A stretch of 63,353 bases of DNA, filler included, from Malassezia furfur (lineage: Eukaryota): assembly GCA_052055015.1 (NCBI GenBank). It is 14 parts of 14 records of this genome, joined end to end, with 100 filler letters (N's around TTAATTAATTAA, not from the genome) between each part and the next. Parts side by side here need not be neighbours in the genome. Positions count along the whole stretch, not along the records: positions 13,741 to 18,192 come from JBQJIT010000673.1; 13 more parts are not named here. One strand, 5' to 3'. The position numbers and the translations under genes are program-made. Position 1 is the first letter of the stretch. Each line of letters starts with the position of its first letter. This document shows positions 1,607 to 58,194 of this stretch, one piece after another. The notes beneath the pieces are model-generated. The model worked only from the letters and a program-made list of their open reading frames with translations, was not told the DNA's origin and searched no databases.

Positions 1607-2425
1607 ATGGCCCCGAAGCGCGGAAAGCAGGCGGTACGCCGCCAGGCGAGCAACCTCGCGGCGAAGGCCAACTTGCACACCGAGAACATCTTCCTGTTCG
1701 TGCCGAACCTGATCGGCTATGCGCGCGTGATCCTCGCGGCGATCTCGCTGTACTACATGCGCGACAACCCCAAGATGTGCACGGTGCTGTACTGCATCTC
1801 GTGCCTGCTCGACGCGTTCGACGGGATGTTTGCGCGGCGCCTGGACCAGAGCACGCGGTTCGGTGCGGTGCTCGATATGGTCACGGACCGGTGCACGACG
1901 TCGTGCCTGCTGTGCTTCCTGACCGCGGCCTACCCGCGCTGTGCGCTGCTCTTCCAGTTCCTCGTGACTCTCGACTTTAGCAGCCACTACATCCACATGT
2001 ACAGCACGCTGGTGTCCGGCTCGCAATCGCACAAGGTGGTCGACTCGTCGCGCTCGCGCATCCTCAACCTGTACTATACCGACACGCGTGTGCTGTTCCT
2101 CTTCTGCGCCTGCAACGAGATCTTCTTCGTGTGCCTGTACCTGATGGACTTTTACAAGCAGCCGCTCGGTCTCGACCTGCTCGCGTTTGTGCCTCACAGC
2201 GTCGCCGAGGCGCTGCCCCTGCACAAGGGCTCGGCGCTGTACCACGCGCTGCACGTCTATCTCCCGACGCTCACCTGGCCCCAGATCCTCGGCGCACTGA
2301 CCCTGCCCGTGTGCATCGGCAAGCAGATCATCAACGGTGTGCAGTTCTGGAAGGCGGCCAAGGTGCTCGTCGATCTCGACCTCGAAGACCGCCGCCGCCG
2401 CCGGCAGCACGGCAAGCGCGCCTAG
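1607..2425 (+). CDS. PIS1: Phosphatidylinositol synthase (CDP-alcohol phosphatidyltransferase)
   Basis: ENIFLFVPNLIGYAR, the CDP-alcohol motif LLDAFDGMFARRLDQSTRFGAVLDMVTDR, and LDFSSHYIHMY. Confidence 0.95.
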   Translation: MAPKRGKQAVRRQASNLAAKANLHTENIFLFVPNLIGYARVILAAISLYYMRDNPKMCTVLYCISCLLDAFDGMFARRLDQSTRFGAVLDMVTDRCTTSCLLCFLTAAYPRCALLFQFLVTLDFSSHYIHMYSTLVSGSQSHKVVDSSRSRILNLYYTDTRVLFLFCACNEIFFVCLYLMDFYKQPLGLDLLAFVPHSVAEALPLHKGSALYHALHVYLPTLTWPQILGALTLPVCIGKQIINGVQFWKAAKVLVDLDLEDRRRRRQHGKRA

Positions 2426-4495: not shown

Positions 4496-4595
4496 NNNNN
4501 NNNNNNNNNNNNNNNNNNNNNNNNNNNNNNNNNNNNNNNTTAATTAATTAANNNNNNNNNNNNNNNNNNNNNNNNNNNNNNNNNNNNNNNNNNNN
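4496..4595. other. Artificial contig-joining spacer (N44-TTAATTAATTAA-N44, stops in all six frames), one of 13 copies
   Basis: Identical 100-nt spacers start at 4496, 9086, 13641, 18193, 22734, 27265, 31792, 36316, 40839, 45360, 49881, 54385 and 58874. The intervening contig lengths run in descending order (4495, 4490, 4455 ... 4380). Confidence 0.99.
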
Positions 4596-12869: not shown

Positions 12870-13640
12870 ATGGTAGGTGCGCGCGCTGACGCAGGACCGG
12901 CAAGTGCATGCGCCGCCCGAGGCGCGGCGTGTGGTCGACTTTTTGCGCACCAAGGCGGGCATGAAAGTGCGCCCCGGCGTGCTGAATGGCCAGCGCGCCG
13001 ACTACTTCAAGGGCAGCGCCGCGATCAAGGCGGTGCTCTCGCCCGAGTACGCCAAGTTGCGCAACGTGCCCAAGGTGACGACCGAGGAGGAGGCGGAAAA
13101 GATGCTGCACAACCTGCTCCCGTACGCCTTCTTTCTGCGTGTCGAGCGCGGCGAGAAGCCGGCCAAGAAGGAGGAGCGCCGTGCGCTCCAGGTGAACCAG
13201 ATGCAGCTCTTTGAAAAGGACATGTACTACGCCTGGTTCTACGAGGGGCAGCAGCTCATGATGAAGCTCGCGGGGCTCGGCATGGTCGTTGTGATGCTCG
13301 CCGCGGTCATGTTCCCGCTGTGGCCGCGGTTCATGCGCCTTGGCGTGTGGTACGCGAGCATGGGTGTGCTGTGCCTGTTTGGCCTGCTCATGGTCCTGGC
13401 GGTGGTGCGTCTGCTGTTCTGGACGATCTCGATCGTGGTGCTGCCGCCGGGCATCTGGATCTTCCCGAATTTGTTTGCGGACGTCGGTGTGGTACGTTGT
13501 CGCCCCCCCTCACGCAGGTCGAGTCGTTCATCCCGCTGTGGGCGTGGGACGTCGCGCCGCCCAAGCCCAAGGCGAAGAAGGCGAAGAAGGCGAAAAAGAC
13601 CAAGCGCGACGCGGGCGACGCGGGCGATGCGCCCAGCGAC
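12870..13640 (+). CDS. SEC62: Translocation protein Sec62, 3'-truncated; ATG-only first coding exon, introns 12873-12894 (22 nt) and 13492-13517 (26 nt)
   Basis: DYFKGSAAIKA, YYAWFYEG, MFPLWP, two TM segments, and spliced WIFPNLFADVGV|VESFIPLWAW. Confidence 0.93.
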
Positions 13641-14080: not shown

Positions 14081-15085
14081 TCAGTGCGCCAGTGCCTCGG
14101 CGCGCTCGGCGACCGCCTGGGCGCTCGGGATGCTCTCCATGGCGCCGTCGACCTCGACGGCCATCGACGCCGCGATGCCCGCGTACCGCAGGATGCGCTC
14201 CGCGGACGCTTTGGTGGTCGGCTCGCGCGCGTCGTGCGCCTGCATGAGCCCCGACACAAGGTAGCCTGCGAACGTGTCGCCCGCGCCCGTCGTGTTGACC
14301 ACCTTGCGCGGCGGCGAGGCGGGCATGTCGATCCACACGCGCTCGCCGTCGACGAGCACACCCGCAAGGAAGCCGCTGCCCCCGCGCGTCACGACGAGCC
14401 AGCCGATGGCCTGCAGCGGCGCGAGGGCCGCGAGCGACGCCGCCGCCGAGTCCTTGCGCTCGCCGTGTAGCGCATCGAGCAGGTCGTCGGACTCGCCCTC
14501 GTTCACAATCAGCACGTCGATGCCCTCCCACGGGAAGGCCTGCAGCTCCTCGGGGCTGAGCATCGGACTCGGGTTAAACACGGTGCACACGCGGTTCGAC
14601 GCGCCGCGCTGCTTCAGCGTGCGCGCGTACGCGGCGTACGCCATGGTCGTCTCGAGCGGGATCTCGTTCTGCAGCATGAGGTGCGTCGCGTCGCTCTCGA
14701 GCCACTGCGCGGGGTCGTCGAGCGCGGGCACCGGCGCAAAGTTGGCGCCCTTGAGCAGCACGATCGAGTTCTCGCCATCCGCGCTCGAGATCTGGATAAA
14801 CGCGCGCCCGGTCGGCGTGTCCTTGGAGCGGTGCACGTCGTCGACCGCGACGCCGTGCTTGCGCAGGTGGTCGAGCGGCCACGGAGCGTCCTCGCCGACG
14901 GCGCCCAGCATCGTCACGGGGACGCCCGACAGGCCGAGCGCCGCCGCGACGTTGGCGCCCTTGCCGCCCGGGCGCGACCACATCTGCGACGAGGAGATCG
15001 TCTCGCCGGGGCGCACAATGTGCGGCACCTGGAACGTCTCGTCGATGTTGACGCTGCTGCGCACGATGCACCGCGCCTGGGACAT
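14081..15085 (-). CDS. RBK1: Ribokinase (PfkB family)
   Basis: SVNIDETFQVPHIVRPGETISS, PGGKGANVA, PTGRAFIQ, GENSIVLLKGAN, LQNEIP and NTTGAGDTFAG. Confidence 0.92.
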   Translation of the reverse strand: MSQARCIVRSSVNIDETFQVPHIVRPGETISSSQMWSRPGGKGANVAAALGLSGVPVTMLGAVGEDAPWPLDHLRKHGVAVDDVHRSKDTPTGRAFIQISSADGENSIVLLKGANFAPVPALDDPAQWLESDATHLMLQNEIPLETTMAYAAYARTLKQRGASNRVCTVFNPSPMLSPEELQAFPWEGIDVLIVNEGESDDLLDALHGERKDSAAASLAALAPLQAIGWLVVTRGGSGFLAGVLVDGERVWIDMPASPPRKVVNTTGAGDTFAGYLVSGLMQAHDAREPTTKASAERILRYAGIAASMAVEVDGAMESIPSAQAVAERAEALAH

Positions 15086-15123
15086 CGTGGTTCACGGCCG
15101 ATCGCCCGATCGCCCTCCGCCTC

Positions 15124-15765
15124 ATGTTTTCGTGCGTCGTGGCCGGGCGCCTGCCGCTGCCCCCGCCGCAGCAGATCGACGCGACGCACGCCGTGTTCCA
15201 GCTGGAGAATGCGGAGCTCATTAACCACCTCGTCGTGTTCATGACGGGCGAGCAGGCGTTCCCGGAGGGGTACGGCGCGACGGTGCACCTGATGTGGCCG
15301 CAGCAGGGCTCCACCGCGCCGCACTGGCAGCTGCTGGGCTGGTGCGTTGCGTGACTGACGCAGCATCCAGAACACCAAACCCTCGGCCATCTTCCGTGTG
15401 CGCGACCCCAAGCGCGAGACGAGCGTCGGGGCGATCACCGCGACGCTCGGCATCAGTGTGGAGACGCTCGACGAGGTCGACCGCCAGATGCAGACGCTGC
15501 AGAGCGCTAAGCCCGCGCAGGGCACCATGGTGCTCGCCAAGTCGGGGCGCGAGGCACAGCTCACCGAGGCCGCCCAGCTCGCGGCGCCAATCGGTACGTG
15601 GGGCGCACTGACGCAGCGCAAAACATCTTTACCTACTTGTCGTCGTTTGCGCCCGAGTCCGCGCCGCAGGCGGTGCCGCTCCTGCAGCGCTGGCTCGACC
15701 AGTTCCAGCGCAAGCTGCAGACGCAGGGCCTCAGTTTCCTACTCAAGGGCGAGGGCGATAGCTAA
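15124..15765 (+). CDS. OPI10: Hikeshi/Opi10 family protein; introns 15342-15363 (22 nt) and 15594-15616 (23 nt)
   Basis: MFSCVVAGR, INHLVVFM, spliced LLGCIQNTKPSAIFR, LGISVE, and IAQNIFTYLSSF...RWLDQFQRKL. Confidence 0.9.
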
Positions 15766-16571
15766 AACTCAAACGAGCGGTTAAAGTCGCGGTAGATCAG
15801 GTCGCGCATCTCGGGCGGCATCAGCGGCGTGTGGTCGCCGCGGTCCAGGTAGCGGTACGGCAGCTCGACCGACTCGCCGCGCCCAAAGTCGAGCGTCGGC
15901 GAGTCGAGGAAGGCGAGGGCCCCCGCGCCGTCCTGGGGGGTGTCGGCGCCCTGCGCCCCGTCGAGCTCCGCAAGCCCGAGACGCAGCCCGTCCTCCACGA
16001 CACGCTTCGTCACACCAAGCGCCGTGTCCGTCGACATCTGCACGCTGCCGAGATGCCGACCGGGGAAGTGGAGCTGGCGCAGCGACGCGGTGCGGTCGCG
16101 CGGCGGGTCGTCGCCGAGGATGCCGCCAAAGAGGAAGTGGGTGAAGGGCGCGTCCTCCGTGTGCGCCGCCTGGGCCGACGACGCGTGCAGGCCGGCGTCG
16201 CACACCGACAGCGGGAGCGGCGCCTTGGGGTCCAGCAGGCAGATGCGCTCGAGCGGCCAGTTGCGCTCCTTGGCGAGCGTCGTGACGGATTTCGCGTGCA
16301 GCTCAAATGCGGCAGGCGCGTGCTGGAGCGTGGGGAACGGCTCCGCAAACGCCTGCTGGAGCGCGCCGAGCGACGCCTCCGAGAGCGACGTAAAGTGCAC
16401 CGTCGAGCCGGCGCCGACGTGGTAGAGCATGTGGCGGTACTGCGTGAGTGGGTGGGCATACCCTGTTGTGAGCGAAGCGACCTACTCGAGCAGCGCCCAG
16501 GGCGGGAAGTGGGCCGGCGCCCCCGGCTCGTCCTCTTCCATGTGCTCGATGATGTATTCTGGCCGCGGCAT
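15762..16571 (-). CDS. SFM1: SPOUT protein-arginine methyltransferase Sfm1; exons 16571-16486, 16462 (1 nt), 16439-15762
   Basis: YIIEHME...WALLEYRHM, ICLLDPKA, FLFGGILGDDPPRDRT, RHLGSVQMSTDTA and ESVELPYRY. Confidence 0.9.
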
Positions 16572-16974
16572 GGTGGAAGGTGGAGGTCCGGCGCTTTTTT
16601 TTTTCGCCGTTTTCTTGCTTTCGCCCACGATGGCCCGCGGGGCCGACCGCGGCCGGGCGACCGGCCGGGGCGGTGTGCCGCGCGGCCGCCCGTAGTGCTG
16701 ACGGCAGTGTGAATGGAAGGTCTGCTGTGCGGTCGATGCCGTGTTCCGTGCGGCCGATGCCGTGTGTCAGTGGGGCCTGGCCGTGCGTCGTACGGTTGGG
16801 CTGTGTCAGCGGCGCCCTGGGCGCCCCGCCCGCTCTCCTTATCCCGTGCCTGCTTCTCCCACGCAGGGGCGTCATTTATGCGGTCTGGGCTTGGTTGTTC
16901 TTGCTCGCGGAGATCGACGGGTATTCCTTCGCTATCAGCCTCAGATGCGTCGATGAAGGCTCATAGATAGTAGT

Positions 16975-40987: not shown

Positions 40988-43359
40988 CTAGTCTACAATC
41001 ACATCGAGCTGATTACGCCGGCGGGCGCGGCTGTCATCCAGCGCCATCGCCAGGTCTTCGTCATCGAGCATCAGCACACGGTCGCCGTCCTCGTCCACAT
41101 AGTACAGGCGCAGATGCGCCGCACCGCCGTTCGGCAGTCCCGTCGGGCTCGCGCGGTACGGCCCGACTCGCTCGACCACCTGCTCGTACAGTGCAGGGAA
41201 CGAGTCGGTGTCGAGCAGCAGCACCTGGCTCTTGGTGTCCCCGTGCTGCACCCGTACCTGCATCGGCGCTGTCATGAGCGGCGACCCGGGCGTCGCCGGC
41301 GTGACCGGCGTCGTCACATACGGGTCACCGCCATTCGGCACCGTGGGGATGCTGCTTCGGCTGCTCGGCGGTCCCACGACGCTGCTCTCGCTCGTGCGCT
41401 GCGTCGCTGGCGAGGAGTGCAGGCTGAACGAGTTGGTGCGTGAGCCGCCGGCGGGCCGGGCGTTGTCGGTCGCAGAGGCGCCCGCCGAGGGCGGACCCGC
41501 CGGGATCGACGGGAAGTACGGATTCCACCCGCCCACGGGCGAGACAGAGGCAGGCGTCGACGGCTCCTCGGGTGCGACGGCGCGTCCGACGGCGCCGTCG
41601 GACGAGGTGCGCTGCATCGGCAGCAGGCCGGGGTGCGAGGGGATCGACGCCGAGCGTCCAGCGGCCATGCCCTTGCGCTGCACGGGCACGGAGCTGATGT
41701 TCATCCCGAGCATGTCCTGCTCGAGCGGGTCGGTGGGCAGCACAAGCTGTGCGGGGATCTTTTTGATGCGCGGCAGTGGCGTCGCACTGGCGCTGCGGGC
41801 AAGCAGCGAGGCCTGGGCGTGGGGCGGCACCGCCGAGGCGCCTGCCGGCGCGCTAGAGCCACTCACCGACGGGCGTGCCGACGGCGGCACACTCGGCGCG
41901 CCCGTCGCCGGCTTGCCCTGTGGCACGATCGACTTGGGCGACGCAACAAGGCCCGAGGCGAACGCATCCTCGCGCGGGTCGCGCGGGGTGTAGCCGGCCC
42001 ACGACTCGTGGATCGGCTTGGCGCGCTCGTCGAGCGGGACGCGCCCCTCGAGCAGGGCCATTGCGTCGGTCTCGGTATAGGAGCGTGCCGGGGGGTGGGG
42101 GATGGTGGGGGTCATGAAGCCGCTGGGCAGATCGGTGGGCAAATCGTCGTCGCTGCGCTGGCTCGACTGGCTCGGCTCGCGCTGGCACAGGCGCCGCGGC
42201 ATGCCGTGGTCTCCGCCCGGCGTGCCGACGATCGGCGTGGCGACCTGCATAAACGCTGCGCCCCGCGCGCTGGGGCGCGTAAAGTGCGAGCTCGAGAGGT
42301 TCAGATGGAGGGGGTGCGGCGGGTGCGACGAGGTGGGCGTCGTGGCCTGCGACAAGCTGTGCTGCCGGCGCAGCGCGAGGTCGTCGAGGAGCTTTTGGAG
42401 CGCGCCCTGCCACAGGCGCAGCTGCTCGTCGTTCTTGCACTTGAGGCTGAACGATTCGACCTCCGACTCGCCGCGCCACCACACCTGCGGCGCATAGGTG
42501 CCCACCGGGTGGTCCGGAAAGCCGCCCGCGCGACCCACGGCATTNNNNNNNNNNNNNNNNNNNNNNNNNNNNNNNNNNNNNNNNNNNNNNNNNNNNNNNN
42601 NNNNNNNNNNNNNNNNNNNNNNNNNNNNNNNNNNNNNNNNNNNNCCGTCTGATACAGGCCCATCGCAAAGTTTTGCATGATCTCCAGGTCATGCACATAC
42701 TTGCGCTCCGACTCGAGCAGCTCGCGCACGACGTGCATGCGCTGGTCGACGGGCGCCTCGAGAAAGTCGTTACTCGTGTGGCGCACGCTCGGCGCGACGC
42801 TCATCAGCAGATTCTGCTCTGCGAGGAGGTCGAGCAGCTTGTTCACGGTGCGGATCACACGCACGAACCCATTGGTGTCGTTCAGATAAAGCTGTGACAC
42901 GGTGAACGTGTCGTCCGGGTCCCACCCAAGCCGCTCCTTGAGCGCGATGAGGAAGCGCATCACGAGCGCCTTGCACGCGTTGGCATTGCTCAGGTTCGTG
43001 TCGACCGTCAGCGGAATCTCGGCAACGCGGGGTGACAGCTGGTTGTACAGTTTGCACAGCGGCGTACCGAGCCGGAAGCACTGCCAGAGATGCGTGACCG
43101 GATCAAACTGCATCTGCGGCACGCCGTTGGGCCGTGTGTCCGTGGCGCCGGGCGACGGCGCCGCGCTGGGCTCGAGAAACTCGGTCCCAAACCCCGGGAC
43201 ACACCAGAGGCGCTCGCGGAGCGACACGCAGCTCTGGTACAGGCCGGACCCCGGAGACGCCTGTTTGTTCATGAGCGTGTTGGCGGGTACGGGCGCAGTG
43301 GGTGTCGTGCGCACACCGGGCGCACCTGCCCCGACGCTGCCGTCCGCGGCGCCGCCCAT
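40988..43359 (-). CDS. CDC24: Cdc42 guanine nucleotide exchange factor Cdc24/Scd1 (CH-DH-PH-PB1), interrupted by an assembly gap
   Basis: CH domain (DPVTHLWQCFRLGTPLCKLYN), DH start (VVRELLESERKYVHDLE), PH end (SFSLKCKNDEQLRLW) and PB1 (LYYVDEDGDRVLMLDDEDL). Confidence 0.92.
42545..42644. other. Intra-scaffold gap (100 N, no linker) hiding most of the Cdc24 DH-PH region
   Basis: Pure N run. The DH start and PH end flank it, so the true gap is far longer than 100 bp. Confidence 0.9.
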
Positions 43360-55516: not shown

Positions 55517-58194
55517 ATGGCGCTCCCTCCATCACGAAAATGGCTACTGCCGTTTCATCGTGCCATCCTCGCGAATCTCATACCAGGCTCCGATGACCCT
55601 GAGCAGCGGGACCGTCTGGTGGTGCTTGCGCCGGGGCTGGGGATGCGCCGCGTAATCGCAACGCTGCTGCGGGCCTACTACAGCAAACAGAACCTGGTAC
55701 TGCTGGTGAACGCCTCTTCGCGTGACATTACTGGCATTGAACATGATTTGGGGACACTCGGACTCCCCCACGATGCGGTCAAGAACCTGCATCATGATAC
55801 GGCCTCGAAGCAGCGCGCGGATGCCTACATGAGTGGCGGCATCATCAGCGTCACGTCGCGCATTTTGATCGTGGACATGCTTTCTAAGCGTATCCCAATT
55901 AACCTAATCACTGGCATCGTTGTGCTTCATGCCGAGCGGTGCGTGACCGGCGCTCATCCAGGGTTTCCCCGACGTCGATCGAAGCGTTCATCCTGCGAAT
56001 CTACCGCGAGCAGAACAAGGTGCGTGAAGCTGTCCTGACCCAGGAAGGTTTCCTGAAAGCGTTCACGTGCAATGCTGAGCAGCTATCGTCCAGTTCCATG
56101 GCGCTGCAGACGGTCATGGCGCAGCTGCGCCTGCGCAACGTGGATATCTGGCCGCGTTTCCACCAGTCTATCGACCGTGACCTTGGGCAGCACCGGGCAG
56201 ATGCCGTGGAGCTGCACCAGCCAACTACGCCTGCGATCCGCTCTATCCAGTCGGCGATTGTCGAGTGCCTCGACGCCACGTTGGCCGAGGTGCGGCGCAG
56301 CAAGCTGGCCGAAGAGGTGGACGACTTTAGTGTGGAGAGTGCGATGCATCGTGCCTTTGACGTGGCCGTGCGGCGTCAGCTCGATCCCGTGTGGCACCGT
56401 CTGGCACCCTCAACGAAGCAGTTGGTCGCGGATCTGGGCACGCTGCGGACGCTGCTGCACTACCTGTTGTCGTACGATGCCGTGTCGTTCTATACCTACC
56501 TGGAAACGGTGCTGGCCGCGAATACGAACGATGCCGGCCGGCCGCGGCAGTCGGCGTGGCTCATGACCGATGCGTCCAACGTGATCTTTAGCGAGGCACG
56601 GCGCCGATTATGGCGCGAAACAAACGAGGGGACTGTGGAGCTGGTGCTCGAGGAGCCGCCCAAGTGGAAGCTGCTTCTCGAGGTCCTGGACGAAATCGAG
56701 CAAGAGGTGTACCATACGCCCGCACCGATCCTCATCATGACGGAAACCGAGCGCACGGCGACGCAGCTACGTGCCTTCCTGTCGAGTGCCGACGATGACC
56801 CCGAGCATCCTGGGCGGCCCGTGATGGCGGCTGCGTTTGCCGAGTACTTGCAGTGGAAGCAGAGCATGCGGGCGCACCACACGAGCCAGTCGGTGCCCGT
56901 GTCGGACGAGGTGATGAGCGAAGCGCTCCAGCGCAAAGCCGCGCGGAGCTCGGCGCAAAAGCGGCGGCGTATCCGGGGTGGGATGGCTATGCCCGTGCAC
57001 ACCCACGCCGACAAAACCGAGCAGGTGCCCGAGCTGCCGAGCGACATACCCCGTGCGGCGCCCTGGGACGTCAAGGCGGAAGAGGTGGACGATACGCTGG
57101 AGGACTACTTTGGCCTAGTGGACCTGGGCAATGTGGTGGTGATCCATACGTACGGTGGGGATGAGAACGACAGTTTGCTGCAAGAGCTGCGCCCCCGCCA
57201 TGTGATCATGTATGACCCGAACCCCCAGTTTGTGCGGCAGGTGGAAGTGTACCGGGCGATCCAACGCGTGCACGTCCAAGTCTACTTTATGATGTACACC
57301 GACTCGGTCGAAGAGCAAATGTACCTGGCGCAGCTGCGCCGCGAGAAAGATGCATTTGAGCGGCTCATCAAGCAAAAAGGCAACATGGCGATCCCACTCA
57401 CCGCCGATGGGCAGCCCGAGGAGGATGCGGACCAGCGGATGCTGCGTCGCCTGAGCTCGCGGGTGGCAGGAGGCAGCTCGCTGACCTCAGCACAGCTGCG
57501 CCTGCCGCCGACGGTGGTGGTCGACATGCGCGAATTTCGCTCGAGTCTTCCGTCGCTGCTGCACGCGGCCGGCATGCAAGTGGTACCGTGTACGCTGCAG
57601 GTGGGTGACTACGTGATTGCGTCCGACATGTGTGTGGAGCGCAAGAGTCTGACGGATCTGGTGCAGAGTCTCAATTCCGGCCGGCTGTATACCCAGTGCG
57701 AGGCGATGTCCATCCACTACCAGCACCCCATTCTGCTGATCGAGTTTGACCAGGAGCGCGCCTTTACACTCGAGACGCTGGGCGGCGATGCCAAGCATCC
57801 TAAGGCGGCGACCGCGACGGAGCTCGATGTGCAGTCGAAGCTGGTGCTGCTGACGCTGTCGTTCCCCCGCCTCCGGCTCATCTGGTCGTCGTCGCCCTAT
57901 GCCACGGCCGAGATCTTTGCGGATCTGAAGCAAGGTCACGACGAGCCTGATGCGACGACGGCCGCGGCGGTCGGCATGGACGACGACGCGTTGGGCGAGA
58001 GCACGCTGAACCTGACACCCGTGGACATGCTGCGCGCCATGCCCGGCGTCACTGGGAGAAATTACGTGTACCTTATGAATGCGGTGGAGAGCGTGCAGGA
58101 TTTGTGTGCCACGCCGCTGGAGCGGCTCGAGCAGCTGATTGGTCGTGAGCCCGGCCGGAAGCTGCACGCCTTCCTGCATGCGACGGCGGCGTAG
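55517..58194 (+). CDS. RAD1: XPF/Rad1/Rad16 nucleotide excision repair endonuclease; introns 55939-55961 (23 nt) and 56020-56043 (24 nt)
   Basis: SVTSRILIVDML, spliced HAERVSPTSIEAFILRIYR, WPRFH, LEEPPKW, VVDMREFRSSLP, VGDY and CVERKS. Confidence 0.95.

Follow-up and report, generated by a model that had tools for sequence, protein, structure and literature searches.

A putative one-base exon between two tiny introns in the SFM1-like gene of Malassezia furfur

Recursive splicing at zero-length exons takes place at AG/GT ratchet points, leaves no exon base behind and is found in very long introns. One-base exons have been demonstrated in only a handful of genes. The single-nucleotide exon of the Arabidopsis APC11 gene, which had been mis-annotated until that exon was recognised, rests on evidence from cDNA and from GFP reporters (Guo and Liu 2015, PMC4674806). 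A one-nucleotide exon is reported for the Fusarium CYP621A P450 genes in 20 species, where SRA reads support it (Nelson and Syed 2026, PMC12940212), and the long-read annotation of Coprinopsis cinerea assigns one 1-nt exon to each of 13 genes (PMC12230235). The initial annotation of the locus described here likewise took one-base exons to be known but rare. No report of a one-base exon in Malassezia was found in the literature searched.

The window, meaning the whole stretch of 63,353 nucleotides of Malassezia furfur DNA that was analysed (assembly GCA_052055015.1; 14 parts joined end to end), has a G+C content of 60-68% and carries an SFM1-like gene (Pfam PF04252) on the minus strand, from 16571 to 15762. 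The predicted layout of the gene is given in Table 1. Translation of the exon-1 frame without splicing gave 29 codons, MPRPEY...WALLE, followed by a TAG stop at 16484-16482, and exon 2 begins with TACCGCCACATG at 16439. Joining 16486 directly to 16439, as removal of one 46-nt intron would do, produces GA+T and a frameshift; this junction, in which the G at 16462 is skipped, reads CTCGATACCGC, i.e. CTCGA/TACCGC. If the G is kept, the mature junction is the 12-mer CTCGAGTACCGC. The initial annotation had read the minus strand as CTCGA, a 23-nt intron A, G16462, a 22-nt intron B and TAC, and this reading matched ours base for base; the donor, CTCAC branch site and CAG that it had claimed for each intron, the TAG in the unspliced frame and the frameshift from a single 46-nt intron were likewise all found. 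The best explanation of this arrangement would be two U2-type introns placed in series around one exonic G, a reading in which splicing is deduced from the DNA and to which we assign a probability of roughly three in four.

Table 1. Predicted features of the SFM1-like gene, window introns with Pfam support on both flanks, and the C-terminal SFM1 intron of relatives. Coordinates are those of the window unless a locus is named.
Feature	Coordinates	Strand	Description
Exon 1	16486..16571	-	ATG 16571-16569 to CTCGA; 28 codons plus first two bases of Glu-29
Intron A	16463..16485	-	23 nt, phase 2; donor GTAGGT, acceptor CAG
Intron A branch motif	16472-16468	-	CTCAC; branch A at 16469, intron position 17
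One-base exon	16462..16462	-	G completing Glu codon GA/G
Intron B	16440..16461	-	22 nt, phase 0; donor GTATGC (weak), acceptor CAG
Intron B branch motif	16448-16444	-	CTCAC; branch A at 16445, intron position 17
Exon 2	15762..16439	-	TAC (Tyr-30) to stop TAG 15764-15762; 225 codons
2-Hacid_dh intron			22 nt; flanking profile positions 87 / 91
DEAD intron			21 nt; flanking profile positions 39 / 49
COX15 intron			23 nt; flanking profile positions 62 / 65
PMM intron			21 nt; flanking profile positions 30 / 35
Hexokinase_1 intron			22 nt; flanking profile positions 35 / 41
Hikeshi_N intron			22 nt; flanking profile positions 66 / 68
Hikeshi N-end / C-domain intron			23 nt; adjacent domains
C-terminal SFM1 intron of relatives	L003:1420-1441		22 nt
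C-terminal SFM1 intron of relatives	L004:2065-2086		22 nt
C-terminal SFM1 intron of relatives	L005 about 2075-2140		about 66 nt

A Hikeshi-like gene lies next to SFM1 on the plus strand, with exons at about 15052-15341, 15364-15593 and 15617-15762 and two introns of 22 and 23 nt. The two genes converge so closely that two bases belong to both stop codons (TAG 15764-15762 for SFM1 and TAA 15763-15765 for the Hikeshi-like gene). Along their whole length, the two 3' ends must be antisense to each other. The window also contains runs of N, namely paired 44-base runs at 4496-4595 and every 4.5 kb or so, and a 100-base run at 42545-42644. They look like masking rather than assembly gaps, and none touches the SFM1 site.

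The SFM1 site shares with APC11 a single exonic base that sits between two GT-AG introns and is needed for the reading frame; APC11, however, is a plant gene with ordinary-sized introns and proof at the RNA level, whereas the SFM1 introns are 22-23 nt and predicted from DNA (PMC4674806). The CYP621A genes are closer in being fungal, and there too an intron-free relative served as the ruler, an AG-N-GT was found in the gap and a conserved motif was restored. Their combined gap is 139 nt with a median intron of 56 nt, against 46 nt for the SFM1 unit, whose conservation is deduced from protein models (PMC12940212). Coprinopsis cinerea is, like Malassezia, a basidiomycete, with one-base internal exons in otherwise normal gene models, but belongs to a different class, the Agaricomycetes (PMC12230235). 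Stwintrons resemble the SFM1 unit in that a short complex intervening sequence is removed by two consecutive U2 reactions under intron definition, and the [D1,2]/[A2,3] one-nucleotide intron shift offers a further likeness, its positions lying one nucleotide apart at the same codon boundary in phase 2 and phase 0. In a stwintron, however, the internal intron lies within a splice signal of the external one and nothing of the unit is retained, whereas in SFM1 neither intron breaks the signals of the other and the G would be kept (Fekete et al. 2017, PMC5587772). Recursive splicing is similar in that a donor lies almost directly behind an acceptor and removal is stepwise, the difference being that SFM1 would retain one base and that its introns are minimal.

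The amount of sequence that has to be removed was given by relatives that have no intron at the site. A metagenome scan for related DNA returned 25 loci, six of which were Malassezia-like (L001-L006). L006 covers only residues 105-225 and so not the site; the other five all cover it and all are intron-free there, reading (C/T)T(C/A)GAG followed directly by TAC. Alignment of the DNA showed that the intron-free Malassezia-like contigs (3/3 aligned) have exactly 45 nt fewer than the window and read CTCGAG/TACCGC, and at the protein level full-length relatives in Malassezia and in other Ustilaginomycotina present an unbroken ...WALLEYRHML.... Since these relatives lack exactly 45 columns of the window, the mature mRNA must read CTCGAG/TACCGC. 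A scan of genome contigs for related DNA gave nine loci, all of them archaeal homologs, with no Malassezia species carrying the interruption among them.

We then enumerated every GT-AG, GC-AG or AT-AC intron whose removal as a single intron leaves an in-frame product free of stops. There were 17 such solutions, none of them GT-AG and none retaining WALLEYRHM; they either remove conserved residues (4 to about 40) or translate intron sequence. A single canonical intron was therefore ruled out, as none restores the motif. The serial two-intron search returned one solution only, 23 nt, a 1-nt exon and 22 nt. When all two-step GT-AG paths were followed, nested ones included, WALLEY was obtained only by removing A then B or B then A. 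A stwintron was rejected on the same grounds, because no nested two-step path yields the conserved protein and the G must stay. The earlier claim that only one route leads to WALLEYRHM was upheld by this exhaustive enumeration for canonical one-step and two-step routes.

A one-step route with unusual ends has to be weighed separately. One 45-nt intron with the non-canonical ends GT..CA, TA..AG or AG..GC, depending on the register, would give an identical mature mRNA, which ordinary cDNA alone cannot tell apart from the product of two introns, and a non-canonical splice site has been reported in SPO11 of M. sympodialis (PMC3560662). Nevertheless, the ends were canonical in every window intron that we looked at, and the internal branch site, CAG and GT, all in correct geometry, would be left as a coincidence. 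Established 3' site selection moreover favors the first AG after a branch site; after branch site B this is 16441-16440, and its use would remove 46 nt, not 45. We regard the single non-canonical intron as highly improbable.

The proposal of two serial introns can be compared with the other introns of this genome, which are 21-26 nt long with the branch A at position 16-21. Short introns have been described elsewhere in the genus: the curated annotation of M. sympodialis gives a mean of 30 bp (PMC5389616, Table 2), M. restricta has a median of 30 (PMC9241646), and Malassezia introns have been termed "very short" (PMC7426719). A generic GT..AG scan with coding filters proved too noisy, with 43 matches classed as "broken if unspliced" versus 24-76 for control dinucleotide pairs, and we therefore relied on a compact pattern and on Pfam contiguity. 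The pattern (GTRNGY, 5-14 nt, YTNAY, 1-7 nt, YAG), applied to both strands of the window, matched at 41 distinct starts with lengths of 21-31 nt, compared with 8.6 +/- 3.0 (maximum 19) in 200 first-order Markov simulations. Two matches separated by 0-4 nt occurred once in the window, at the SFM1 site, and only one of the 200 simulations had any such pair. Widening the gap to 60 nt added one more pair, around a candidate 58-nt exon at 55939/56020. The compact intron-like sites, about 40 of 21-31 nt on both strands, have the consensus GTACGT, 8-12 nt, CT(C/G/A)AC, 1-4 nt, CAG.

Candidates were chosen by pattern and coding context, and 13 of them were probed by a Pfam scan of their translated flanks. 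Seven had two flanks that matched either neighbouring positions of a single family or neighbouring domains of a single protein (Table 1); their lengths were 21, 21, 22, 22, 22, 23 and 23 nt. Two more showed looser contiguity (Rot1, 26 nt, and Amino_oxidase, 36 nt), and the remaining four had a Pfam match on one flank only. The longer introns in the window are of 36 and 38 nt. The intron population of the window is unusually uniform and tiny. In the 18 window introns compared, the branch A occupies position 16-21, with 5-8 nt separating it from the 3' end, and introns A (17 and 6) and B (17 and 5) fall within both ranges. These 18 introns were also used to train a position-weight score, 11 of them resting on pattern and coding context or on partial Pfam support rather than on two-flank contiguity. 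Intron A scored 22.2, within the leave-one-out range of 20.3-24.9, whereas intron B scored 16.4, under the lowest training intron (20.3). The donor is responsible, scoring 3.0 in B and 8.8 in A (local consensus GTRCGT). Other GT..AG segments of 20-28 nt that score as high are infrequent in either case (5/3392 for A and 17/3392 for B). The GTAGGT donor of A recurs twice among the candidate introns, at 12873 and 24464; the GTATGC donor of B was absent from all other window introns examined, and this weak donor is the main internal caveat on the two-intron reading. An origin of A and B by tandem duplication is not supported, their identity of 0.61 lying below the mean of 0.72 +/- 0.06 for unrelated pairs of window introns.

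A candidate 22-nt intron with the donor GTAGGT was also seen at 12870-12894 on the plus strand, right after an ATG and before a Sec62-like frame (12895 onward). The first coding exon of this Sec62-like gene may be the start codon alone.

The distribution of the interruption was examined in a protein tree of 19 Malassezia proteins, each trimmed to begin at the internal Met. The window protein grouped with M. brasiliensis (94/87 support), then with M. yamatoensis (83/75) and then with the protein P0006 (93/96), and at the site each of these four has either an interruption or an odd gene model. The models of M. brasiliensis (P0004) and P0006 begin at the internal Met, and that of M. yamatoensis (P0005) reads WALLE-HM, without the conserved Tyr-Arg. 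Fourteen of the remaining 15 tree rows are continuous. The public SFM1 models of M. brasiliensis and M. yamatoensis look wrong at the Glu-Tyr boundary, and the faults in P0004 and P0005 may share a cause with the interruption in the window; the intron-G-intron arrangement has apparently led gene prediction astray in related species. As far as sequences can tell, the pattern in the four-member clade would fit independent assemblies sharing a structure that gene predictors cannot solve, and the protein models suggest that AG-G-GT may have been kept across the clade.

The exception among the 15 rows is P0012, a Logan-derived protein outside the window's clade that begins at the internal Met (MLFHVG...) and whose nearest neighbour, P0015, is continuous; it could represent a second, independent interruption or a contig artefact. 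Relatives carry another SFM1 intron, located after ...ES and before VELPYRY (Table 1), which the window lacks at about 15870. P0012, P0014-P0017 and P0019-P0021 read through this C-terminal intron or end in it. The N-terminal interruption, by contrast, is found in the window's clade only. The positions of introns in this small gene turn over between Malassezia lineages.

One-base homopolymer errors do occur in long-read assemblies, and an error of this kind would offer another account of the locus. If one G of a GG pair had been lost at the 5' junction (GAG/GTAGGT) or at the 3' junction (CAG/GTACC), there would really be one 46-nt GT-AG intron, a size made conceivable by the window introns of 36 and 38 nt. 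The initial annotation had held that any indel permitting a single intron would refute the one-base exon. This was too broad: an indel inside the 46-nt intron cannot rescue it, since nothing but the exon ends determines the spliced product, and the sole error that could do so is a G lost at either junction. An error would therefore have to fall on one of two specific positions, in a window where many long open reading frames are intact (700-780 codons, up to 777), which argues against frequent indel errors. The 46-nt intron would be the longest in the window and the internal CTCAC-N-CAG-G-GTATGC would be a coincidence, of a kind seen as a tandem in one of 200 simulated windows. The independent assemblies of the clade likewise gave interrupted or odd models, which would also argue against an error. 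Loss of a G during assembly appears very unlikely to us.

The division of the protein family between the two exons argues for their being joined. The PF04252 match of exon 2 reached 163 bits against a curated cut-off of 27 (E = 8.5e-48) and covers profile positions 19-200, and residues 6-29 of exon 1 match positions 2-18, the profile being divided exactly between positions 18 and 19, at the Glu-Tyr boundary. A full-length relative matched the yeast Sfm1 structures 5h5d, 5c77 and 5c74, whose crystal chains align from the N-terminal stretch that exon 1 encodes. The product is predicted to be a SPOUT protein arginine methyltransferase of ribosomal protein S3, a role taken from the names of the PDB entries. 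The best protein match of the exon 2 product was M. brasiliensis P0004 (97% identity), with further matches to P0006 (85%), M. yamatoensis (84%) and M. japonica (80%). The GC content of exon 1 by codon position, 0.76/0.41/0.90, is the same as the coding signature of this genome. Exon 1 aligns codon for codon with three relatives, and the three sites at which the window departs from all of them are synonymous third positions. The GC3 of 0.90 and the synonymous-only differences at these 3 sites suggest that coding constraint still acts on exon 1.

These observations bear on the possibility that exon 1 is not joined at all, the protein beginning at the internal ATG 16430-16428 and the exon-1 frame being an upstream ORF or a relic. 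Splicing would then be unnecessary, and three existing models do begin at the same Met, namely P0004 (the GenBank entry for M. brasiliensis) and the predicted genes P0006 and P0012. Gene models that are blind to the introns or have failed would give a first-Met-after-stop start anyway, however, and the shortened product would be without PF04252 positions 1-21 (about 21), among them the residues that line up with the beginning of the yeast Sfm1 crystal chains. An internal start sits poorly with the high GC3 of exon 1 and with lineage-specific changes there that are only synonymous, and it leaves unexplained two complete sets of intron signals within 45 nt. The start contexts also differ: ATG 16571 has an A at -3 and an A-rich tract upstream, a tract found in relatives too, whereas ATG 16430 has a C at -3. 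Translation from the internal ATG is the most probable of the alternatives weighed here and is, in our judgment, still unlikely.

Under the model of two serial introns, A and B would be independent U2-type introns that interrupt SFM1 inside and just after the Glu-29 codon. Each would be complete, with a donor, CTCAC, a branch A at position 17 and a CAG 5-6 nt further on, and each would be recognised by intron definition. The donor of B would overlap the acceptor region of A, and with units 1 nt apart the U1 and U5 contacts would overlap as well. Judging from the established contacts of the spliceosome, simultaneous engagement would then be impossible and the introns would be removed in two consecutive splicing cycles, which is a reasonable inference. 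Either order would lead to the same mRNA, CTCGA-G-TACCGC, restoring ...WALLE-YRHM... and the full SPOUT methyltransferase. If A is removed first, the three bases before the weak donor of B would change from AGG/GT to GAG/GT, a better exon context, and because of this improvement A-then-B would be the likelier order.

The weakness of donor B raises the question of whether most transcripts lack the G. Each of the sites that would then be joined, donor A and acceptor B, is a good one; the gene would make mainly a frameshifted product and would either be in decay or have its output set by how often each route is taken. Yet both exons are under coding constraint, as judged from the 97% identity to M. 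brasiliensis and the intact 225-codon frame, and the near branch site is the expected partner of donor A, since local branch As lie 16-21 nt from their donor. The initial annotation had further suggested that skipping could act as an off switch, for which we found no support: the skipped mRNA continues for about 140 codons in the wrong frame, this being the 16010-16960 frame, which stays open to about 16010. Skipping the G is thus a poor design for a switch, giving no clean off state, and predominant skipping is the least probable of the explanations considered.

Judged from its DNA, the serial arrangement of A and B would add SFM1 to the documented one-base exons, as a case unusual in its compactness, 46 nt in all, within a genus with near-minimal introns. 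Both introns flanking the G would be near the lower size limit of spliceosomal introns. The whole unit is shorter than one typical fungal intron, and nearly the same RNA would have to undergo two rounds of splicing. Standard pipelines are blind to such an exon; the M. sympodialis workflow, for instance, accepted a junction only if 20 bp of exon flanked it on either side (PMC5389616). Malassezia genomes may conceal further cases of this sort. A broader proposal, which we advance tentatively and at less than even odds, is that the 46-nt module is common to the whole M. furfur-group clade, comprising M. brasiliensis, M. yamatoensis and the species of the window and of P0006, that it causes the truncated or altered models there and that A always leaves before B, because the removal of A repairs the exon context of the weak donor of B. 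If this were true, no more compact unit needing two splicing cycles would have been described, and the module would be proof from nature that intron definition suffices for the spliceosome to recognise an exon of one base.
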